Part shown: piece after piece, positions 7,963 to 48,412 of the stretch
How the letters are laid out: every line of letters starts with the position of its first letter
Position numbering within the stretch: the stretch's first letter is position 1
DNA from: Burkholderiales bacterium
GTDB taxonomy: Bacteria; Patescibacteriota; Minisyncoccia; Phycocordibacterales; UBA9973
NCBI GenBank assembly: GCA_023701005.1
Contig: JAMPXW010000004.1
Coordinates: forward strand, 1-63,952
Length of the DNA stretch: 63,952 bases
Direction: 5' to 3'
Program-made: the position numbers and the translations under genes
The notes under the pieces: model-generated
Told to the model about the DNA's origin: nothing
Seen by the model: the letters and a program-made list of their open reading frames with translations, nothing else
Databases searched by the model: none

Positions 7963-9174
7963 ATGCCTGATAAAAAATTAAAATTAACAGAATTACTTTC
8001 ATTATCAATTAGAACTTTTCGTACAAAACCCCAGAGAGCTTTTTTGACAGTGCTGGGTATGTCTATAGGTATAGCGACAGTTCTTCTTTTGGTCTCTCTT
8101 GGCTATGGCCTTCAATATATTTTGATAGGTAAATTGATGACGACAGAAGATTCTTTGATTACAATGGAGATATCTTATCCTTCTGAAAGTAATATTTTGA
8201 TTAAAAAACCATTATTGGAAAATATAAAAACATATGAAGACGTCGCAGAAGTTAGCCCTATCGCTGAATTCCCGGGAGAAGTGAATGAAGATGGTGGTTC
8301 TGGTCTTTTGGTAGATACAAATATAGTTGAACCATCCTATTTTAGATTATCAGGACTTTTACCAAATATTGGGATATCTCCTTCAGATAAAGATAAAGGC
8401 TTGGTTATATCTAGTCAAACATTGATTCCGTTAAATTTAAGTGCGACAGAAGAAACTTTGAATAAAGCTTTAAATTTTAAAGTTTTTTATCAAGATGATA
8501 AAAATAACACTTTTGAAGAGACGAATTCCATTGAACCAATAAAAATAAGAGGAATTATTAGTGACGAATCAATGCCTCCTACAACGATTATTTTTGCAAA
8601 TTCTCTTTCACAAGAGCCGCCGTTTTTTAGAAAAGTTCTTGTTAAAGCGAAAAATGTAGAAGTTTTAGAAGTATTACGTGATAGATTTTTAGGAGAGGGA
8701 TTTTTAGTATCAGCTCGTATAGATCTTGTGACTCAGGCGAGGAAGATTACAAATATAATAACTATTATATTGGGTGTTTTTGGTATTACTGCACTCATTG
8801 TGTCTTCAGTGGGAATGTTTAATACGATGCTTGTCGGATTCTTGGAACGTATTTATGAAGTTGGAATTTTAAAATCATTAGGAGCTACTGATTATGATGT
8901 TCGTAATTTATTTTTAGTTGAAGCATCTTTAATGGGATTCATGGGAGGTTTGGGTGGAGTTTTGATCGGCATAGGAGGAGGAAAGTTATTGAATCTTATT
9001 GTTAGTATCATATCTACTAAATTTGGAGGTGACCCGATAGATTTATTTTTAACACCATGGTGGTTTGTTTTTGTGATATTATCTTTTTCTATGGTTATCG
9101 GATTTTTGTCTGGTTGGTGGCCTGCTCACAGGGCAGCTGGTCTTTCTCCTAAAGAAGCTTTCACTAAGAGATAA
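7963..9174 (+). CDS. FtsX/MacB-like ABC transporter permease
   Basis: N-terminal TM helix, large extracytoplasmic segment, and a C-terminal FtsX-type 3-TM bundle (..ERIYEVGILKSLGAT..). Confidence 0.85.
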   Translation: MPDKKLKLTELLSLSIRTFRTKPQRAFLTVLGMSIGIATVLLLVSLGYGLQYILIGKLMTTEDSLITMEISYPSESNILIKKPLLENIKTYEDVAEVSPIAEFPGEVNEDGGSGLLVDTNIVEPSYFRLSGLLPNIGISPSDKDKGLVISSQTLIPLNLSATEETLNKALNFKVFYQDDKNNTFEETNSIEPIKIRGIISDESMPPTTIIFANSLSQEPPFFRKVLVKAKNVEVLEVLRDRFLGEGFLVSARIDLVTQARKITNIITIILGVFGITALIVSSVGMFNTMLVGFLERIYEVGILKSLGATDYDVRNLFLVEASLMGFMGGLGGVLIGIGGGKLLNLIVSIISTKFGGDPIDLFLTPWWFVFVILSFSMVIGFLSGWWPAHRAAGLSPKEAFTKR

Positions 9175-12561: not shown

Positions 12562-13839
12562 ATGGAGAAACATTGGATTAAAAATTTTGATAAATTAGCA
12601 ATTACCGAAAATCGCAAAATGGCTTTAGAGATTATAGAAGCAGGGCTTGATGCGATAAATACAGAAAAAGTTATTGAATCTTCTATCTCAATGATGGGGA
12701 ATACTTTAGTTATAAAAGGTAAAAGTTTTAATTTGTCTAAATATAAAAATATAAAGATAGTAGGATTTGGTAAATCTTCTTGTGATGCTGCTTTGGCCTT
12801 AGAAAATATTTTAGGAGATAAAATAAAAGAAGGAGCTGTTGTCGGACTTCATAAGATTGATTGCAAATATATTGAAACGTTTGAAGGGACTCATCCTAGA
12901 CCTTCAGAAAAGAATATTGAAGCGGGACAAAGGATATATGATATAGCAAATGATGCAGGTGAAGATGATCTTATTATTGCGATAATATCTGGTGGTGGAT
13001 CAGCATTACTTTGTTATCCAGAAACTGAGTATAAAGAAGGAGCTAAGCTTTATGAGTCTTTTTTGAAAACGGGTAAGACTATTTCAGAGATGAATACAGT
13101 AAGAAAACATCTTTCTTTATTGAAAGGAGGAGGTTTGGCTAAAGTGGCTTATCCTGCGACTGTTGTTGGGCTTATATTTTCAGATGTTCCTGGAGATTTG
13201 TTCTCAGATGTAGCTTCTGGTCCCACCTACAAAGACAATACGACCTTAGCTGATGCCAAACAAATAATAATCAATAATAAATTGGGTGAATTTATTTTGA
13301 ATGAGACACCCAAGGATGATAAGTATTTTGAAAAAGTTTACAATTTTGTATTAGTTTCAAATAAAACAGCAGCAAAGAAAATGGCAGAAAAAGCTGAGGA
13401 ATTTAATTTTGATGTGAATGTTGTTTCTACTGATTTATATTATGAAATAAATAAATCACTTGAAAAGATATTTTTATGTAAAAAAGAGAATTCTGTTATT
13501 TTAGCAGCAGGTGAATCTCGTGTTGTTGTAGAAAAAAGTGGAGGGAAAGGTGGTAGGAATCTGCATACAGCTCTTTTAGCTGTGAAAAATAAGATTGCAG
13601 ATAGTGAACATTCTGTTTTTATTTCTTTTGCTTCTGATGGCATGGACAATAGTGACGCAGCAGGTGCTGTGGTAGATAAATATACCTTAGAAAAAATAAA
13701 GAATTTAGGTATAGATATAAATGATCACTTGGAACGTTTTGATTCGTATCCAGTATTTGAAAAAACAGGAGATATTATTATTACTGGCCCCACAGGAGCT
13801 AATGTGTCTGATCTTATGATACTTTTAACTAAAAAATAA
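12562..13839 (+). CDS. Glycerate kinase, MOFRL family (DUF4147 + MOFRL)
   Basis: GFGKSS.., IISGGGSALL, GGKGGRN and ITGPTGANVSD resemble TM1585-type glycerate 2-kinases. Confidence 0.75.
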   Translation: MEKHWIKNFDKLAITENRKMALEIIEAGLDAINTEKVIESSISMMGNTLVIKGKSFNLSKYKNIKIVGFGKSSCDAALALENILGDKIKEGAVVGLHKIDCKYIETFEGTHPRPSEKNIEAGQRIYDIANDAGEDDLIIAIISGGGSALLCYPETEYKEGAKLYESFLKTGKTISEMNTVRKHLSLLKGGGLAKVAYPATVVGLIFSDVPGDLFSDVASGPTYKDNTTLADAKQIIINNKLGEFILNETPKDDKYFEKVYNFVLVSNKTAAKKMAEKAEEFNFDVNVVSTDLYYEINKSLEKIFLCKKENSVILAAGESRVVVEKSGGKGGRNLHTALLAVKNKIADSEHSVFISFASDGMDNSDAAGAVVDKYTLEKIKNLGIDINDHLERFDSYPVFEKTGDIIITGPTGANVSDLMILLTKK

Positions 13840-29668: not shown

Positions 29669-29759
29669 CAGTCGATAGTAGAATTATTTCTACAATTCGC
29701 CTAGGTATAGACTCTCCGTAGAAGACTATATCATATTAAAATAGTTTTGTCAAACTTTG

Positions 29760-29831
29760 TGACCCTACAGAGAATCGAACTCTGATTACCGCCTTGAAAA
29801 GGCGATGTCCTAACCGTTAGACGATAGGGCC
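29760..29831 (-). tRNA. tRNA-Glu(UUC)
   Basis: Acceptor GGCCCTA/TAGGGTC, anticodon loop TTTTCAA, T arm CAGAG-TTCGATT-CTCTG. Confidence 0.9.
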
Positions 29832-29885
29832 AATAATTATTTACTTTTCAAAATAAAATTTAACATACCTACTTGGCCTTTTTAA

Positions 29886-29933
29886 GAAAAGGCGATGTCC
29901 GCTGTGTTCTAACTTGGTTAGACGATAGGGCCA
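29886..29933 (-). pseudogene. Degenerate copy of the 5' half of tRNA-Glu(UUC)
   Basis: GAAAAGGCGATGTCC (15/15) + 8-nt insert + CTAAC + TTG + GTTAGACGATAGGGCCA (17/17) compared with 29797-29832. There is no 3' half. Confidence 0.8.
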
Positions 29934-30134
29934 AATTGGATATCTTTATATTATATTATTTTTGAAAAAAGTGCAAAAAATGGTAAATTGAATGACATGG
30001 AGATGTGGCTATGAAATATGAACTGCTTCATATTTCATCTGATTCTGCTTTTGCAGAAATATCTAATATGCTTTAGCATAAAGATATAGGGAAGGGCCCG
30101 AGAGGGCACGAAGACACAACGACGAGTGCAACGA

Positions 30135-30221
30135 GGAGATGTGGCTGAGTGGTTGAAGGCACCGCTCTCGAAAAGCGGCATACCTGAAAAGGTATCGGAG
30201 GTTCAAATCCTCCCATCTCCG
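30135..30221 (+). tRNA. tRNA-Ser(CGA), class II with a long variable arm
   Basis: Acceptor GGAGATG/CATCTCC, anticodon loop CTCGAAA, variable arm CATACCTGAAAAGGTATC, T loop TTCAAAT. A hairpin and T-run follow at about 30231-30268. Confidence 0.9.
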
Positions 30222-30425
30222 CAAAATAAAAAACCCGTATCGTATTATTTTGTACGTCGGGTTTTTTTGAATAAATTTTGGAAAATATGTAAATTCTTTC
30301 CACTTATTGATAATAGAAGAAAGAAAAAAAGTATAAAAGAAATATAAACATATTTATAGTAATAACAAAATAGTAAGATTATTATGATTATTACTATAAC
30401 TGAAATAAGGCTTAGGATTTCTTTC

Positions 30426-42479: not shown

Positions 42480-42488
42480 AAGAAAAAA

Positions 42489-42510
42489 GCAGGGGAGACA
42501 ACTCCTCTGC
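42489..42510. terminator. Bidirectional intrinsic terminator
   Basis: 9-bp stem GCAGGGGAG/CTCCTCTGC (one G-T pair) with a 4-nt loop, flanked by an A-run and TTTTCGTTTT. Confidence 0.8.
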
Positions 42511-42518
42511 TTTTCGTT

Positions 42519-42752
42519 TTAAACTTCTCTGAAAGTTTTCTCAATTTTTTCGTAATATCTTTTTGTTCTTTCATTTTTTCTTTTTTCAATAAAAAGAATT
42601 AAAAAAATGAATGGTATTCCAAGAAATAAATAGACAGCGTATTCTTGGTTTTCATTTTTCGTTACTAATTTTGTTGCAATAACGAAGATGATGATTGGCG
42701 CAATATATAAAATCAGGATACCAATTAGATTTTTAATCTTACTTTTTTTCAT
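42519..42752 (-). CDS. Small 2-TM membrane protein (hypothetical)
   Basis: Two hydrophobic helices. Weak RBS. Confidence 0.4.
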   Translation of the reverse strand: MKKSKIKNLIGILILYIAPIIIFVIATKLVTKNENQEYAVYLFLGIPFIFLILFIEKRKNERTKRYYEKIEKTFREV

Positions 42753-42857
42753 ATAAAGTACCTTTGGCTGGTTCTATATAAGCATAGCATATTTAAAGCC
42801 ACTTGTCAAGTTAAATTAAATATGCTATAAATAAAGAAGATAAACAAAGGAGATTAT

Positions 42858-43067
42858 ATGGATTTTGCTCTTGCCGTGTGCTATAGCTTTACAATTGTAG
42901 AGATTATAGCGATTTTCTATGGTTTTCTTTTAAAAGCTTTTTATTTTTTCAGAAAACATAGAAAATATGATTTTAAAAAATATTTTCTTAAAAGTTTAAA
43001 ATATTGGTTTATTGCTTGTATTTTTGTTTTGGTGATGAATCAAATTTTTAAATGGTATGGATATTAG
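42858..43067 (+). CDS. Small 2-TM membrane protein (hypothetical)
   Basis: AAGGAG RBS, two hydrophobic helices, and a hairpin with T-run at 43066-43098. Confidence 0.5.
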   Translation: MDFALAVCYSFTIVEIIAIFYGFLLKAFYFFRKHRKYDFKKYFLKSLKYWFIACIFVLVMNQIFKWYGY

Positions 43068-43098
43068 CACTTGTGAATGCAAATTTACAGGTGCTTTT

Positions 43099-44067
43099 TT
43101 AATTTAGAATTATATTAAATAAGAATCCTGTAAACATTATTCCTGCACTCACTATGCTTGCGAATATTATAATGAGTTTAGTTTTCATTACTCTTTTTAA
43201 AATCATAAATTCTGGGAAAGAAAGAGCCGTCACAGACATCATGAAAGAAAGAGTGGTGCCCATAGATACTCCTTTTTCTGTCAAAACAGAGACAAGCGGT
43301 ATGACACCTGCTGTATTCGAATATAAAGGTATACCGATAAGTACAGCGAGTGGTACGGCATACCATTTGTCACTTCCTGCATATTGAGCTAGAAAATCAG
43401 TCGGAACATAGCCATGTATAAAAGCACCGATTCCAATACCGATCAAAATATAAATCCAAACTTTTTTTAATATATCTAAAGTATAATCTTTGGCATAAAT
43501 TATTCTTTCTTTTCTTGTCATTGTTGGTAATTCAATATTTCCATTTATAGTATTTTGATATACAAATGGTTCGACTAAATTTTCTATTTTCATTTTACCG
43601 ATAATTATTCCTGAAAGAATAGAAATGATGAGCCCGCTTATTATATACAAGAGAGCTATCTTCCAGCCGAAAAGTCCCAAGAGTAGTATGAGGGCTACTT
43701 CGTTTATCATGGGTGACGCTATCAAGAAAGAAAAAGTTGTCCCTAAAGGGACTCCAGCTTGAACAAATCCTAAAAATAAAGGTATGGCAGAACAAGAACA
43801 AAAAGGTGTGATTATTCCAAAGAGGGAAGCTAAAACGTTTCCAGTATATTTATTTTTATGAGAAAGAATATTTCTAATTTTTTCTGGTGGTAAGTATGAG
43901 CGTATTATAGAAACGATGAAGATTATTACACTGAGTAAAATTAATATTTTAAAGGTGTCGTATATAAAAAAGTTAATTGCATTACCGAATGTTGATTTAG
44001 GAATAATATTTAAAATATTATAAGTAATATAATCAGCAAATAATTGTAAAGGATAAAAAATATTCAT
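43099..44067 (-). CDS. Permease of the DUF318/ArsP-like family
   Basis: Polytopic protein with the CSCSAIP motif. Immediately downstream of a thioredoxin-like partner gene. Confidence 0.75.
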   Translation of the reverse strand: MNIFYPLQLFADYITYNILNIIPKSTFGNAINFFIYDTFKILILLSVIIFIVSIIRSYLPPEKIRNILSHKNKYTGNVLASLFGIITPFCSCSAIPLFLGFVQAGVPLGTTFSFLIASPMINEVALILLLGLFGWKIALLYIISGLIISILSGIIIGKMKIENLVEPFVYQNTINGNIELPTMTRKERIIYAKDYTLDILKKVWIYILIGIGIGAFIHGYVPTDFLAQYAGSDKWYAVPLAVLIGIPLYSNTAGVIPLVSVLTEKGVSMGTTLSFMMSVTALSFPEFMILKRVMKTKLIIIFASIVSAGIMFTGFLFNIILN

Positions 44068-44307
44068 TTAAGAATTATCTTTAATTATATTTTTAATTTT
44101 TTCTATATCAGAGGTTGAGCCTATCAAAACTGGTTTGCCATTGATAGCCAACACAGGGCTCTGCATCAATCCCATAGCAACTATCTTTTGAATGTCTGTT
44201 ATATATTCTACTTTTATATTTAGATTTAATTCACTGACAGCTTTTTCTGTCAGTTCAAATAAATTTTTACAAGTTTTGCACCCCGAACCAAGCACTTGAA
44301 TATTCAT
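44068..44307 (-). CDS. Thioredoxin-family small protein (redox-active disulfide protein 2-like)
   Basis: Start taken at MNIQVLGSGCKTCK, which contains a CxxC motif. 79 aa. The upstream part of the track ORF lies in repeat A. Confidence 0.75.
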   Translation of the reverse strand: MNIQVLGSGCKTCKNLFELTEKAVSELNLNIKVEYITDIQKIVAMGLMQSPVLAINGKPVLIGSTSDIEKIKNIIKDNS

Positions 44308-44352
44308 TTTTAGAGTATAACAGATTAAAAAATAAATTATAATAGATATAGT

Positions 44353-44420
44353 GTGTGCTATGCACGCAATATTTATGTGGTCACAAATCACTAAGTATGG
44401 TTTTTCGCTATGCTCAAATT
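44353..44420. repeat. Direct repeat A (68 bp)
   Basis: 65/68 identical to 48161-48228. Confidence 0.95.
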
Positions 44421-44466
44421 TTACATAATAAAAAAGCAAGAACAACTTTTGCTGTTTTATTGATTT

Positions 44467-44495
44467 TTGACATTATTTATAGTCTGATGTAATAT
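44467..44495 (+). promoter_or_regulatory. Consensus-like promoter TTGACA-17-TAATAT for orf71
   Basis: -35 at 44467-44472, -10 at 44490-44495. An AAGAGG RBS precedes the ATG at 44527. Confidence 0.6.
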
Positions 44496-44526
44496 CCCAA
44501 TTAGATAGAAATAAAAAGAGGTACAT

Positions 44527-44742
44527 ATGATTTTAAGTGATCAACGACTTCAAGAGTTGAAAAGCATAATAGGTATGGAAGCTAACTGTTTAGTTGGTTA
44601 TATACCTACTCCAGAGGCATTAAAAGAATATTTCAACTGGATTTCAAAAAATCACAAAATTCCTCTTGAAGAAATTCAAGAGTTTGTGAGAGTTAAATAC
44701 GAAGAATCTTTTACAAAGATTCTTCGTAATCTTAGTAATTAG
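44527..44742 (+). CDS. Hypothetical 71-aa protein (orf71) between repeats A and B
   Basis: It has its own promoter, RBS and a perfect terminator. I recognise no motif. Confidence 0.6.
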   Translation: MILSDQRLQELKSIIGMEANCLVGYIPTPEALKEYFNWISKNHKIPLEEIQEFVRVKYEESFTKILRNLSN

Positions 44743-44745
44743 ATA

Positions 44746-44777
44746 AAAAAGGATTCTTTCTTTAAAGAATCCTTTTT
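44746..44777 (+). terminator. Intrinsic terminator of orf71
   Basis: Perfect 14-bp stem AAAAAGGATTCTTT/AAAGAATCCTTTTT with a 4-nt loop. Confidence 0.85.
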
Positions 44778-44797
44778 AAAATAATGTGGTTTACGAT

Positions 44798-44870
44798 AAT
44801 TATGCCTGTGGCTTCACAAAAGTAAAAAGGGCTGGAGCAGTCCAGTCCTTTTTAAGCTTTTGTGACCCTA
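44798..44870. repeat. Direct repeat B (73 bp), ending in an 8-nt copy of the tRNA-Glu 3' end
   Basis: 70/73 identical to 48276-48348. It contains a hairpin CTGGA-gcag-TCCAG plus a T-run on the minus strand. Confidence 0.95.
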
Positions 44871-44913
44871 ATTGTACGAGATTGGAACCACATTTCCAAT
44901 CAAATAAAGGTTT

Positions 44914-45960
44914 CTATGTCTCTGAGCTAGGTTTTTTGTGGTGTTTAATTGATTCTTCTTCTATAAAAAACAAATTCCTGTGCGGTCTCGAACAGGCTAC
45001 ATAGAGTTTATTTTTTGTACCAGAAACTAACTTGCTAAGTTTTTTATCTTTGAAATGTTTCATTGTAGTTTTATTAAGTACTACACAAACATCCTCAAAT
45101 TTATTTTCTCCCTTAGAATCTCCCCAATTTCTTGAGAGGCATTTATATTTACTACTTTCTCTATAAAATAATTTGACAACATTATTGTTACTAAAAATTT
45201 CCTCAATTATTTTTGGATCAGAAATAAATTCAACAGTAGACATATTGTTTTTGTGTGAGTATATTTCTATCTTAAGATTTTCAGTAATAAAATTGCAGAT
45301 TGTAGGAGTACATCTCCAGCTTTTATTTAAATGTTCCGTGTCTGGTTTTATACCAAGTTGTTCGAAGTTTTTAATATATTCTTTATAGTCATTATGTAAA
45401 TCATTATTTGTCGTACCATCTCTACTAGTATCGAAGGTGTGTTGGTAGAAATCACCAACCAGTTTTATTTCAAGCTTTGCCCTTACAAGACTTTTTAGTA
45501 AATCGAAGTCATGTCCAGCAAAATCTTGAATTTCATCAATATATAAACAGTCATAGTATTTTTCTAATCTTTCGTTTATGTCATCCAATACATTTAATTC
45601 TTGTAATAGTTTGGCAATTCTATTGTGATACAATCTTCTTCCTTCTGTTAGATAAAAAGAAAGATCACTCCTCTTTTTTTTGAGAGTATATTCGGGTGGA
45701 AAATCCCAAAATATACCTTTGACTTTTAACTTATATGATAAAAACGGTTTAAAACAAAAGCCATATAAAAATGGAAAATATGAGTATAATTGTATATTAT
45801 CTGGGAAATATCCAAATTTTTCTATAATACCATCTCTTAAGTTTTTAGTATTACTTTTAGTGTAAGTAATTAGCAAAAATCTCTTTTCTAAATTTAAATT
45901 ATCTATTATTAGGCTAGTCTTACCAGAACCAGCAACCGCTAAGATTATTTTTTTATCCAT
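44914..45960 (-). CDS. Compact UvrD-like SF1 helicase (GajB-like)
   Basis: Motif I AVAGSGKTS, motif II YIDEIQDF, motif III VGDFYQ, motif IV SWRC, motif VI LYVACSRPHRNL. 348 aa. Overlaps the upstream gene by 16 nt. Confidence 0.8.
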   Translation of the reverse strand: MDKKIILAVAGSGKTSLIIDNLNLEKRFLLITYTKSNTKNLRDGIIEKFGYFPDNIQLYSYFPFLYGFCFKPFLSYKLKVKGIFWDFPPEYTLKKKRSDLSFYLTEGRRLYHNRIAKLLQELNVLDDINERLEKYYDCLYIDEIQDFAGHDFDLLKSLVRAKLEIKLVGDFYQHTFDTSRDGTTNNDLHNDYKEYIKNFEQLGIKPDTEHLNKSWRCTPTICNFITENLKIEIYSHKNNMSTVEFISDPKIIEEIFSNNNVVKLFYRESSKYKCLSRNWGDSKGENKFEDVCVVLNKTTMKHFKDKKLSKLVSGTKNKLYVACSRPHRNLFFIEEESIKHHKKPSSET

Positions 45961-47519
45961 TGAATTGCGTCCACAATATATTGTGGGGGTTTTATTTCAG
46001 TTGATTTTTTTTCAAGCAACTCGAAAGCACAATTTGTTTTATTGGAAAGCATATAATCTTGTACTGTCAGGGTTCTTCTGCCTGCTTTAAATAATTCGTC
46101 GCAAATTTTTGAATTATTTTGGTACATTGAAATTTCAAAAGTTGGTATTTTATCATCGGTTTCAGAAAATATTCCCATATTTGAGTCTTTATAGCTCGAA
46201 TACCTATCAACACAATTTTCTTTATAGTTTCCGTCGTTGTCTGTTACCACAGCTGTTTTTATTTTTAATTCTTTTGCAATATTAAAATAATGCTTGAAGC
46301 TTGTACCTCCCACTGAAATCACATGTATGTCAGAATTTTCAAGCTTATTGGAGGTTACGTTTGTGTAAAAAGATTCCATTAACATAAACTCGGAATCACC
46401 TTCTACGAGAATCACTTTTTTGGAAAATATAAATTCAAGAACATTATTGTCAGGTGCTTTCATAAAAAATTTTGCCGTATCTTTTGGTAGTTGATCAAGT
46501 AGGATGGGAAGGGTACTATTACTATTCAGCAAAATTGATTTTCTTAGATCAAGTCTTGAGCTGATTAAATTGCTATGCGTGGTAATAAATAATTGTTTAT
46601 TTTCTGATTTGTTTATTGTATCAATTAATTTTTTCATATTGATATGACTTAGGTGATTTTCAGGTTCTTCAATTAGAATAACGTCAAGTTCTTTTTGATT
46701 TTTTTGAAGTGCAAACTCTGTTTTTATAAAACATTGTCTTCCTTTCCCTCGATTTACCAAATCGATGTCTCCTTCTTTTATTGTTAGATCAGTTTCCAAA
46801 TTTGCCCTTGAGTTGTTTCTAATAGAGAAAGAATATTCATCAGAACTTACTCTTGAATTAAGGTCACCCAATACACTATCTTTAAAATTCTCCTTGTGTT
46901 TCCTGTATTCATTTTGATGCCTATTTTTTTCTGAGTCGTTAATAATAGTATTATTATAAAGAGTTTTGATGTAAGATTTCGTTGCATATTCATTATCAAT
47001 TTCTGTGTTGTCTAAAAAAAGGTGTCTCATGTATTTTCTATAACTAGTGTAACTACTACCCTCGAAAGTTTTGAATGTTATTGAGTAAAACTCAAACGGG
47101 AAGTTGCTTTCTTTTTGTTGTAGAATATCTTTGATTTCTTTACTCAGATCATCCCTAGGTTCACATCTAAGCGCTAATCCGTGTGTTTTAACCTCATCTG
47201 AATTATTTTTGCCATCTAGATCTTTATTTGTTTGGTCATTGAAATATAATTCAATATAAAGAATTGGAAGGTCTTCATATTTTTTATTTGAAGCTAAAAA
47301 ATTTTGTATTACTTCACTATTAAACATATTGTCCAAACCACAGCTTTCTACTTTACTTCTACTTCCACTTAATACAAGATCTATAGCAGACAAAATTGTA
47401 CTTTTTCCTGCTTCGTTATCTCCAATTAATAGGTTAATTGAATCATTAAACTTAACCTCGAATTCTTTGAATCGTTTAAAATTCTTTATTTTAATTTTCT
47501 CAATTATCTTCCTAGTCAT
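45945..47519 (-). CDS. OLD-family ABC-type ATPase with C-terminal TOPRIM nuclease domain (GajA-like, class 2 OLD)
   Basis: Walker A GDNEAGKST, signature-like NRGKGRQ, Walker B ILIEEPENHLS, TOPRIM ILVEGDSE ... AVVTDNDG. Confidence 0.8.
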   Translation of the reverse strand: MTRKIIEKIKIKNFKRFKEFEVKFNDSINLLIGDNEAGKSTILSAIDLVLSGSRSKVESCGLDNMFNSEVIQNFLASNKKYEDLPILYIELYFNDQTNKDLDGKNNSDEVKTHGLALRCEPRDDLSKEIKDILQQKESNFPFEFYSITFKTFEGSSYTSYRKYMRHLFLDNTEIDNEYATKSYIKTLYNNTIINDSEKNRHQNEYRKHKENFKDSVLGDLNSRVSSDEYSFSIRNNSRANLETDLTIKEGDIDLVNRGKGRQCFIKTEFALQKNQKELDVILIEEPENHLSHINMKKLIDTINKSENKQLFITTHSNLISSRLDLRKSILLNSNSTLPILLDQLPKDTAKFFMKAPDNNVLEFIFSKKVILVEGDSEFMLMESFYTNVTSNKLENSDIHVISVGGTSFKHYFNIAKELKIKTAVVTDNDGNYKENCVDRYSSYKDSNMGIFSETDDKIPTFEISMYQNNSKICDELFKAGRRTLTVQDYMLSNKTNCAFELLEKKSTEIKPPQYIVDAIQWIKK

Positions 47520-47633
47520 AAGAATAATATAGCTCTTTTGGTTCCAAATTACTAATGGTATTGACGCTATGAAATAGTTTAATGTCTAACCTATCTTTTG
47601 AATTGACTTTTGTCAAAAAAAAGGAGAAAGAGT

Positions 47634-48137
47634 TTAAATTTTTATAATCCCTAAAAGGATTTTGACTATCTGTTTAATTTCATGATAGTACCTATTTATT
47701 TTTATATTTAAAGGATGTGTATTTTGAGTGCCAATCACTTTAATATTATAAACTCTCTCAAAAATTTTTTTAGAAAGAAGTCTGACTCGCAAAACATGAA
47801 AATCGGAAGTTACCAAAATAATTTTTTGGATTTCCAGTGTATCAATTAACTTTTTTGAAAACTTAAGGTCTTCTATTGTATTTTTACTTTCAATTATTTG
47901 TAGAATTTCTGATTCAGGTATTCTTTCTGATAATAAATATCGTTTTATATAAAAAGAATGTGGTTTGTTCGTTGTATTAAAATGAGCACCATATCCTCCG
48001 GTTGGAAGTAATTTATAGTTTTTATATTTATTAAATATCTCAATAGCTTTTTCAATTCTCTTTTTTGCGTTAGTAGTCAAATTTCCATTGTCGTCATTTC
48101 TTGATCCAAGAATTATTATTACTCCTTCAGTTTTCAT
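47634..48137 (-). CDS. DUF218 (YdcF/SanA/ElyC-like) protein
   Basis: Start taken at MKTEGVIIILGS. ..LLPTGG.. and ..ILVTSDFHVLR.. motifs. An extended -10 TGCTATAAT (48144-48152) lies 6 nt from the ATG. Confidence 0.7.
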   Translation of the reverse strand: MKTEGVIIILGSRNDDNGNLTTNAKKRIEKAIEIFNKYKNYKLLPTGGYGAHFNTTNKPHSFYIKRYLLSERIPESEILQIIESKNTIEDLKFSKKLIDTLEIQKIILVTSDFHVLRVRLLSKKIFERVYNIKVIGTQNTHPLNIKINRYYHEIKQIVKILLGIIKI

Positions 48138-48160
48138 AAGTAAATTATAGCAGGTATAAG

Positions 48161-48228
48161 GTGTGCTACGCACGCAATATTTATGTGGTCACAAATCACT
48201 AAGTATGATTTTTCGTTATGCTCAAATT
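48161..48228. repeat. Direct repeat A' (68 bp)
   Basis: 65/68 identical to 44353-44420. Confidence 0.95.
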
Positions 48229-48275
48229 CTACGTAGGTGTTTGCCGACCCCGGCTCGGCTATTTTAGTACTCAAA

Positions 48276-48348
48276 AATTATGCCTGTGCCTTCACAAAAG
48301 CAAAAAGGGCTGGAGCAGTCCAGTCCATTTTAAGCTTTTGTGACCCTA
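48276..48348. repeat. Direct repeat B' (73 bp), overlapping the 3' end of tRNA-Glu(CUC)
   Basis: 70/73 identical to 44798-44870. Confidence 0.95.
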
Positions 48349-48412
48349 CAGAGAATCGAACTCTGATTTTATCCTTGAGAAGGATACGTCCTAACCGTTA
48401 GACGATAGGGCC
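48341..48412 (-). tRNA. tRNA-Glu(CUC)
   Basis: Same acceptor, D and T arms as tRNA-Glu(UUC). Anticodon arm TATCC-TTCTCAA-GGATA. Confidence 0.9.

Follow-up and report, generated by a model that had tools for sequence, protein, structure and literature searches.

The window analysed here, a 63,952-nt stretch of contig JAMPXW010000004.1 (assembly GCA_023701005.1, deposited as Burkholderiales bacterium and placed by GTDB in the Patescibacteriota), carries on its reverse strand two overlapping genes, gajA and gajB, that encode an OLD-family nuclease and a short UvrD-like partner. Upstream of gajA lie a DUF218/YdcF-like gene and a tRNA-Glu(ctc) gene, and downstream of gajB lie a Thioredoxin_3 gene, an ArsP_1 permease gene and murF. 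We found that the gajA–gajB pair is very probably a compact-type Gabija (class 2 OLD) anti-phage cassette, which a Nomurabacteria-like genome from the Candidate Phyla Radiation (CPR) acquired horizontally at a hotspot of flexible genes just downstream of tRNA-Glu(ctc).

An overlapping nuclease–helicase gene pair of the Gabija family

The open reading frames (ORFs) and all of the motifs that a first-pass annotation of this DNA had quoted are present in the two translations. GajA contains GDNEAGKST, NRGKGRQ, ILIEEPENHLS, ILVEGDSE and AVVTDNDG, and its key residues are K39 of the Walker A motif, H315 of the H-loop, E373, G404, D427 and D429 of the TOPRIM domain, and K494. GajB contains AGSGKT, IDEIQD, GDFYQ, SWRC and YVACSRP; motifs I to VI could all be located, with K14/T15 in the Walker A motif and D142/E143 in the DExQD box. 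The quoted motif residues of both proteins are invariant or nearly invariant in family alignments, and the two genes overlap by 16 nt (45945–45960).

To assign the pair to a family, we matched the proteins directly to the hidden Markov models of PADLOC-DB v2 (2023) and used Pfam, phmmer and Foldseek as further searches. GajA matches model PDLC00102 at 5.8e-117, with residues 5–521 on model positions 2–531 of 532, and GajB matches PDLC00148 at 9.8e-56, with residues 1–336 on model positions 1–355 of 369. GajB also matches another short model, 365 positions long, at 5.4e-49. In the nuclease, the Pfam families OLD-like_TOPRIM (3.6e-22) and AAA_15 (2.4e-18) are detected; the helicase gives partial Pfam matches only (UvrD-helicase at 9e-8, and Viral_helicase1), and the GajB family profile matches PcrA and Rep. 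When the TOPRIM segment is searched in isolation, it matches Bacillus cereus GajA (BcGajA) and the class 2 OLD protein of Xcc at 2e-5. TOPRIM residues E373/G404/D427/D429 align with BcGajA E379/G409/D432/D434, the residues that Antine et al. described as the active site. An AlphaFold model of GajA was used solely to rank fold matches and not for detail; its top 15 Foldseek matches are 14 B. cereus GajA chains (3e-12 to 8e-8) and TsOLD at rank 6. The GajB model (predicted local distance difference test score, pLDDT, of 88.8) matches PcrA, Rep, UvrD and the GajB chain 8tk1_F, which has the top identity (18%). The first-pass annotation had proposed a Gabija or class 2 OLD module, and this assignment stands: the PADLOC GajA and GajB matches run end to end, strong OLD/TOPRIM and superfamily 1 (SF1) helicase matches are found, the catalytic residues align, and the structural matches agree.

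A long-type Gabija from Escherichia coli offers a second set of residues for comparison. Wu et al. showed that Gabija of the E. coli ECOR49 type defends against phage and mutated the residues listed here. We obtained the long-type sequence via their published ECOR49 cloning primer (VR50 chromosome) and aligned it with the window proteins. GajA K35, H317, E379 and K528 of the long type fall on window K39, H315, E373 and K494, and GajB K27/T28 and D183/E184 fall on K14/T15 and D142/E143; the counterpart of GajA D495 is ambiguous and is probably E462. We considered whether these experiments could validate the compact subtype and rejected this, as the residue numbers in the supplement (GajA K528, GajB K27/D183) and the cloning primer identify the long chromosomal type.

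The long type was found in 18 genomes. At its VR50 locus (L205, 3587–8320) it directly follows a tyrosine integrase gene beside tRNA-Thr, and the phage polarity suppression and ogr/Delta-like genes that come after it point to a P4-like satellite.

A helicase without the 2B subdomain in a widespread compact form

The 2B subdomain of SF1A helicases sits between motifs IV and V. An alignment of compact and long GajB proteins made with MAFFT misplaced motifs V and VI, and we measured the motif spacing directly instead. The distance from motif I to motif II is 131 aa in window GajB and 159 aa in long-type E. coli GajB, and the distance from motif II to motif III is 27 aa in both. In contrast, motifs IV and V are separated by 67 aa in window GajB and by 205 aa in the E. 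coli protein, which thus has 138 more residues in this interval. Because the short interval is where 2B of SF1A proteins lies, compact GajB is a natural 2B-less form. The structural model is in line with this spacing: it keeps subdomains 1A, 1B (approximately residues 61–136) and a continuous 2A (approximately residues 204–348) with no 2B insert. The four-subdomain SF1A layout (1A, 1B, 2A and 2B) is found in B. cereus GajB (BcGajB), where 2B comprises residues 314–416, and window GajB departs from it in the absence of 2B. Thus, the helicase is short and without an accessory subdomain, as the first-pass annotation had suspected. The missing 2B is a property of the entire compact subfamily, which PADLOC still classes as Gabija.

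The nuclease is also shortened. After the DxD motif, window GajA has 95 aa as compared to 144 aa in BcGajA, and its alignment to long-type E. coli GajA shows a 23-aa gap after residue 462. Class 2 OLD proteins have been described as ~50 aa longer than class 1 proteins owing to a helical insert in the TOPRIM domain (PMC10568477).

To see how common this form is, we ran two scans for relatives, one of species genomes (a collection with one genome per species) and one of metagenomes, and examined the 80 best matches listed for each, 160 loci in all. In the species genomes, 357 stretches encode a relative; they come from Bacteroidota, Pseudomonadota, Campylobacterota, Nitrospirota, Verrucomicrobiota, Bacillota, Cyanobacteria and others. 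Among the loci listed, gajA directly precedes and overlaps gajB in 80/80 genome loci and in 63/63 metagenome loci with room to judge (143/143). At locus L077 the only part of gajA that could be detected upstream of gajB is its final 50 residues, and one 39-kb metagenome contig (OJDH01000214.1; L179 and L180) has a gajA copy near either end. In the protein database, GajB has 2,834 matches and GajA 4,844, and the best 120 of each have near-constant lengths (~343 aa for GajB and ~519 aa for GajA). An exhaustive search of representatives gave 143 clusters at 50% identity with E below 1e-30, whose full-length members are 333–385 aa.

Plasmids are rich in this type. We found it on 1,741 PLSDB plasmids, mainly conjugative ones of Klebsiella and Escherichia. 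The E. coli version occurs in 769 of 5,426 complete E. coli genomes (14%), with plasmids accounting for 780 of its 790 places; the compact pair is the prevalent plasmid-borne form of Gabija in Enterobacteriaceae. On pAPEC-O1-ColBM (L204), for example, vapBC is followed by a 521-aa gene (WP_001128474.1) and then a 345-aa gene (WP_000361403.1) with a 16-nt overlap. RefSeq names the E. coli compact pair only 'ATP-dependent nuclease' and 'helicase UvrD' or 'hypothetical protein'. The first-pass annotation had suggested that the architecture might be undescribed. This suggestion has to be given up, since PADLOC-DB v2 has fitting GajB models of 365 and 369 positions and GajA models of 532 and 534 positions, and since pairs of ~343 and ~519 aa occur by the thousands across many phyla and abound on plasmids. 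The window pair is an ordinary member of a widespread short-form Gabija subtype that is already modelled in PADLOC.

The tRNA-Glu(ctc) hotspot, its repeats and the DUF218 gene

The coordinates of the genes, repeats and signals at the locus are collected in Table 1.

Table 1. Features between the ArsP_1 permease gene and tRNA-Glu(ctc) in the window.
Feature	Position	Strand	Basis and remarks
tRNA-Glu(ctc), anchor of the insertion hotspot	48340..48412	(-)	ARAGORN; in L001 this tRNA directly precedes gajA
D2, right copy	48276..48348	(-)	Repeat alignment; last 9 nt of the tRNA, terminator-like hairpin (48323..48310) and T-run
D1, right copy	48133..48235	(-)	Repeat alignment; promoter region with TGCTATAAT and palindrome-like TGTGACCACA
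DUF218/YdcF-like gene, 167 aa from ATG	47634..48137	(-)	Pfam DUF218 8.8e-20
Conserved region upstream of gajA	47520..47597	(-)	-10-like TATATT (47531..47526), 6 nt before ATG; L001 homology starts at 47597
gajA, OLD-family ABC ATPase + TOPRIM nuclease, 524 aa	45945..47519	(-)	ORF, Pfam, PADLOC, alignments
gajB, compact SF1A UvrD-like ATPase, 348 aa	44914..45960	(-)	ORF, Pfam, PADLOC, model
Degenerate tRNA-Glu 3'-end copy GTTCCAATCTCGTACAATTAGGGTCACAAAA, att-like scar closing the cassette	44858..44888	(-)	Motif search
D2, left copy	44798..44870	(-)	Repeat alignment; terminator-like hairpin 44845..44832
D1, left copy	44325..44427	(-)	Repeat alignment; promoter region of the Thioredoxin_3/ArsP gene set
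Thioredoxin_3 gene	44068..44307		Other hotspot cargo
ArsP_1 permease gene	43099..44067		Other hotspot cargo

Window MurF is 79% identical to MurF of Candidatus Nomurabacteria genomes, and the order murF, variable region, tRNA-Glu(ctc), rmuC is kept in ~20 relatives. The interval between murF and tRNA-Glu(ctc) ranges from ~50 bp to 9 kb among relatives (L082–L115) and covers 42480–48339 in the window. The gajA, gajB, DUF218, thioredoxin-like and ArsP permease genes are all missing from this interval in the 35 relatives with a shared murF locus (~20 of which also show tRNA-Glu(ctc) downstream); as had been expected, the gajA–gajB locus is variable rather than core. The relatives carry heterogeneous cargo there; among the genes recognised by eye are those for an H+-PPase-like membrane protein, a copper P-type ATPase, a two-component system and an ABC transporter. 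We rejected the idea that the hotspot is a defence island on account of this heterogeneity.

The closest copy of the pair is found in a Candidatus Zambryskibacteria genome (L001, the same organism as L124), where gajAB stands directly after the genome's own tRNA-Glu(ctc) without DUF218. The two cassettes are 84% identical in DNA from window position 47597 to 44858. Their GajA and GajB proteins are 89% and 86% identical, as compared to 39% for MurF and 65% for RmuC, and the ratio of nonsynonymous to synonymous substitution rates (dN/dS) is 0.05 for gajA and 0.07 for gajB. Because cassette identity is high while MurF and RmuC identity is lower, and because dN/dS is low, we conclude that the cassette has been exchanged between CPR lineages and is under purifying selection.

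At the far end of the cassette, after gajB, lies a degenerate copy of the tRNA-Glu 3' end. When we searched the window for the tRNA-end motif, we found only the two true tRNA-Glu genes and this copy (chance expectation 0.00), and L001 has a counterpart after gajB at 8073–8100(+). An integron-type attC was considered for this copy and rejected, as there is no GTTRRRY core. A contig of a relative from the Paceibacterota (L097, JBAZVG010000001.1) has two tandem copies of this element resembling the tRNA-Glu 3' end in its murF-to-tRNA-Glu hotspot, at 13060–13090(-) and 13692–13722(-). One of the two matches the window copy at all but 1 of 31 positions, and the copies close small gene sets encoding 185 aa and 229 aa in one case and 188 aa in the other. 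This tandem arrangement suggests that small cassettes have accumulated one after another with no integrase involved.

Two direct repeats, D2 (73 nt, copies 96% identical) and D1 (103 nt, copies 87% identical), are each found twice, once behind the tRNA and once between gajB and the thioredoxin/ArsP genes. The spacer between tRNA and gajA in L001 is a diverged homologue of D2 + D1. The hairpin of the left D2 copy, which follows gajB, is likely the terminator of gajAB. A near-palindrome upstream of the -10 box reads TGTGACCACA in both D1 copies and TGTGATCACA in the L001 counterpart; it may be an operator common to the DUF218 and thioredoxin/ArsP promoters, and no regulator gene is evident near the near-palindromes. 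The left D2/D1 copy is split by ~330 nt (region 44428–44797) that have no equivalent in the right copy. This insert contains an opposite-strand ORF of 71 aa (44527..44742(+)) with no family match, a promoter-like TTGACA, 17 nt, TAATAT arrangement at 44467–44495 and an inverted repeat at 44738–44785.

Neither gajA nor gajB has a Shine–Dalgarno motif, in agreement with the first-pass annotation; however, its further claim that this sets them apart from most core genes did not hold. In a crude gene set of 53 starts, a Shine–Dalgarno-like core is present at just 5/53 as compared to a background of 7.9%, while a -10-like hexamer (TAnnWT) ending 5–8 nt before the ATG is present at 23/53 (background 8.9%) and an extended -10 (TGnTAnnWT) at 11/53 (background 1.0%). 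Since -10-like boxes are enriched and Shine–Dalgarno motifs are at background, leaderless-type starts are the norm in this genome (examples at 48144–48152, at 47526–47531 and upstream of 50709), and the missing Shine–Dalgarno motifs of gajA and gajB are therefore not distinctive. The TATATT box 6 nt ahead of the gajA ATG is conserved in L001, and the conserved upstream region that contains it is probably gajA's own leaderless-type promoter. A scan for sigma-70 promoters was uninformative (26 sites as compared to 23.3 expected).

For DUF218, the mechanically called ORF begins with a GTG at 48173, which lies upstream of the -10 box, and the likely start is the ATG at 48137. The extended -10 TGCTATAAT at 48152..48144 lies exactly 6 nt ahead of this ATG, as first annotated. 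Within the available flanks of gajAB (up to 6–7 kb), we found a DUF218 homologue at 0/80 genome and 0/80 metagenome loci among the best 80 listed per scan, the nearest copy L001 included. PADLOC has no match to the DUF218 protein, and no paper that mentions both DUF218 and Gabija was found. A single-protein scan of genome contigs with DUF218 gave no match; homologues came from the protein database and look-ups of their contigs, and the closest ones (51–62% identity) are stand-alone genes in unrelated contexts. The closest (62%; L120, 762–1363) is located 25 nt downstream of a tRNA-Glu(ttc) and by a tRNA-Ser(cga), and it likewise has an extended -10 at 6 nt before its ATG. The same tRNA-Glu(ttc)/tRNA-Ser(cga) pair is present in the window at 29759–30222, where an unrelated ORF of 163 aa follows. 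Given the placements in the window and in L120, DUF218 is associated with two different tRNA-Glu genes. The first-pass annotation had left two options for DUF218, a third component of the system or simply cargo; its absence from 160/160 related loci and the unrelated contexts of its homologues speak against the former and for the latter. DUF218 is an unrelated passenger, placed downstream of a duplicated promoter in the stretch that separates the tRNA from gajA.

Proposed mechanism, alternative explanations and known systems

Judged by homology to characterised Gabija systems, the pair probably acts as follows. In GajA, the ABC ATPase domain would bind nucleotides and keep the TOPRIM nuclease off, until phage replication drains the nucleotide pool and GajA nicks or cuts DNA. 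The 2B-less GajB would dock on GajA via its retained 1B subdomain, and the resulting DNA ends would stimulate GajB to hydrolyse (d)ATP and (d)GTP, which would deepen the nucleotide depletion and abort the infection. The two genes would be translationally coupled via their 16-nt overlap, with the transcript predicted to end at the D2 hairpin.

Several observations weigh against the identification of the pair as a Gabija defence cassette that was acquired horizontally. Whole-protein phmmer searches and family profile searches of PDB sequences miss BcGajA and BcGajB, and identity to the characterised B. cereus proteins is remote, at ~14–18% in Foldseek alignments. The AlphaFold model of GajA is moderate (pLDDT 66.8), with residues 162–323 poor. 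No experiment on the compact subtype was found in the literature, where the system of Wu et al. is the long type. We also found no integrase: the cassette has no genes other than DUF218, gajA and gajB, a tblastn search with a tyrosine integrase as query was empty, and 20 mid-size ORFs of the contig are housekeeping genes, in a check of the contig that was not exhaustive. Burkholderia and Xanthomonas class 2 OLDs are non-specific nucleases on which ATP has no effect (PMC10568477). Finally, since 2B is missing and the part of GajA that follows the DxD motif is ~50 aa shorter than in BcGajA, the pair could differ in its regulation and in whether it nicks DNA or acts as an exonuclease.

These last points lead to an explanation that we consider quite improbable, namely that the compact pair is a distinct subtype in which a 2B-less GajB works as a true translocase or helicase that feeds a non-specific, ATP-insensitive GajA, so that foreign DNA, including that of competing plasmids, is degraded directly rather than infection being aborted by nucleotide sensing. 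In E. coli Rep, removal of 2B switches on helicase activity in the monomer, and the compact GajB has a continuous 2A in the model and only 67 aa between motifs IV and V, as compared to 205 aa in the long type. The shortened TOPRIM tail of GajA, the behaviour of the class 2 OLDs BpOLD and XccOLD, non-specific and unaffected by ATP (PMC10568477), and the concentration of the compact type on conjugative plasmids can be read in the same way. However, the residues of the GajA ATPase that would sense nucleotides are conserved (the Walker A lysine and the H-loop histidine, which corresponds to H317 of the tested system), and B. cereus GajB also is without the unwinding elements of UvrD and has no helicase activity (PMC10568477). 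A broader proposal joins this one to the insertion site: the compact pair would be a mechanistically distinct Gabija subtype, and CPR bacteria of the Paceibacteria type would carry it as a member of a group of very small integrase-less cassettes that insert serially at the 3' ends of tRNA-Glu genes, each leaving a conserved tRNA-end copy of ~30 nt. Such copies number one in the window, one in L001 and two, in tandem, in L097, and at two separate loci DUF218 is the direct neighbour of a tRNA-Glu gene; we regard the proposal as a whole as unlikely.

Two further explanations concern the role of the genes in their host. DUF218, GajA and GajB could form a three-gene system with DUF218 as a sensor or regulator, as DUF218 is co-oriented with gajA and only 114 nt upstream of it, no terminator-like site was found between the two on the coding strand, and the D1/D2 direct repeats flank the trio on both sides. 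The absence of DUF218 from all 160 gajAB loci, including the L001 copy with its 84% DNA identity, makes this very unlikely; there is also no PADLOC match or paper linking DUF218 to Gabija, its homologues stand alone, and gajA has retained a conserved upstream region of its own in which a -10-like box is found. Even less credible is a housekeeping module for repair or recombination in the CPR host, or a decaying remnant, to which we give hardly any weight. The GajB fold is that of UvrD, PcrA and Rep, and an archaeal OLD-family ATPase has been reported to act in the cell cycle. However, the pair is absent from all 35 relatives that share the murF locus, it has moved between CPR lineages, and the same type resides on plasmids of other phyla, while a decaying remnant would be at odds with the strong purifying selection and the intact motifs. 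We therefore retain the compact Gabija cassette as the preferred explanation.

What this adds is modest in one respect, as the locus is one more Gabija locus of a kind that standard defence-annotation tools would call, and the defence repertoires of CPR bacteria have already been surveyed at scale (PMC12259885). The locus does show that a streamlined CPR genome keeps a defence cassette under strong purifying selection and that this cassette passed between distant CPR lineages at one tRNA site. It makes the short Gabija form, very common on clinical plasmids, explicit as one with a natural 2B-less SF1A partner, and it draws attention to a small site of cassette accretion at tRNA-Glu.

When the window is set beside characterised systems, the Gabija of B. 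cereus VD045 (GajA 578 aa, GajB 494 aa; PDB 8SM3) has the same gene order, in which the ABC ATPase/TOPRIM nuclease gene comes first and the gene for an SF1A UvrD-like partner second. Window GajB shares the Walker A motif and the DExQD box of BcGajB, and BcGajA is the best structural match of window GajA. In the B. cereus complex 1B makes the main contact with GajA, and window GajB retains 1B; however, VD045 GajB has a 2B subdomain and VD045 GajA a longer tail, while the window pair is without 2B and has a tail ~50 aa shorter. Class 2 OLD proteins, as defined by Schiltz et al. (2019; BpOLD and XccOLD), are described as ~50 aa longer than class 1 proteins, whereas window GajA, at 524 aa, is of class 1 size; its TOPRIM region matches the C-terminal regions of both class 2 proteins (Xcc 2e-5, Bp 2.6e-3). 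Long-type E. coli Gabija (VR50) is larger (GajA 566 aa and GajB 540 aa, as compared to 524 and 348 aa) and only 20–23% identical to the window proteins, although the catalytic and sensing residues mutated in that type fall on conserved residues of the window. Unlike the window pair, it is carried with an integrase by tRNA-Thr and with P4-like satellite genes.

With regard to its site, the window cassette resembles tRNA-targeted islands in its insertion at a tRNA 3' end, its distal direct repeat of that end and the variable content of the site. In contrast to such islands, it is very small (~3.4 kb), no integrase was found, and the repeat reaches ~200 nt past the tRNA (D2 + D1). The compact PADLOC subfamily (GajA PDLC00102/PDLC00098; GajB PDLC00148/PDLC00140) matches the window pair end to end; the host here is a CPR bacterium and not a conjugative plasmid of Enterobacteriaceae, or Bacteroidota. 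The pAPEC-O1-ColBM pair is like the window pair in protein lengths, in its equal overlap of 16 nt and in the 67 aa between motifs IV and V, with 44–45% protein identity; it stands next to vapBC, while the window pair stands beside tRNA-Glu.

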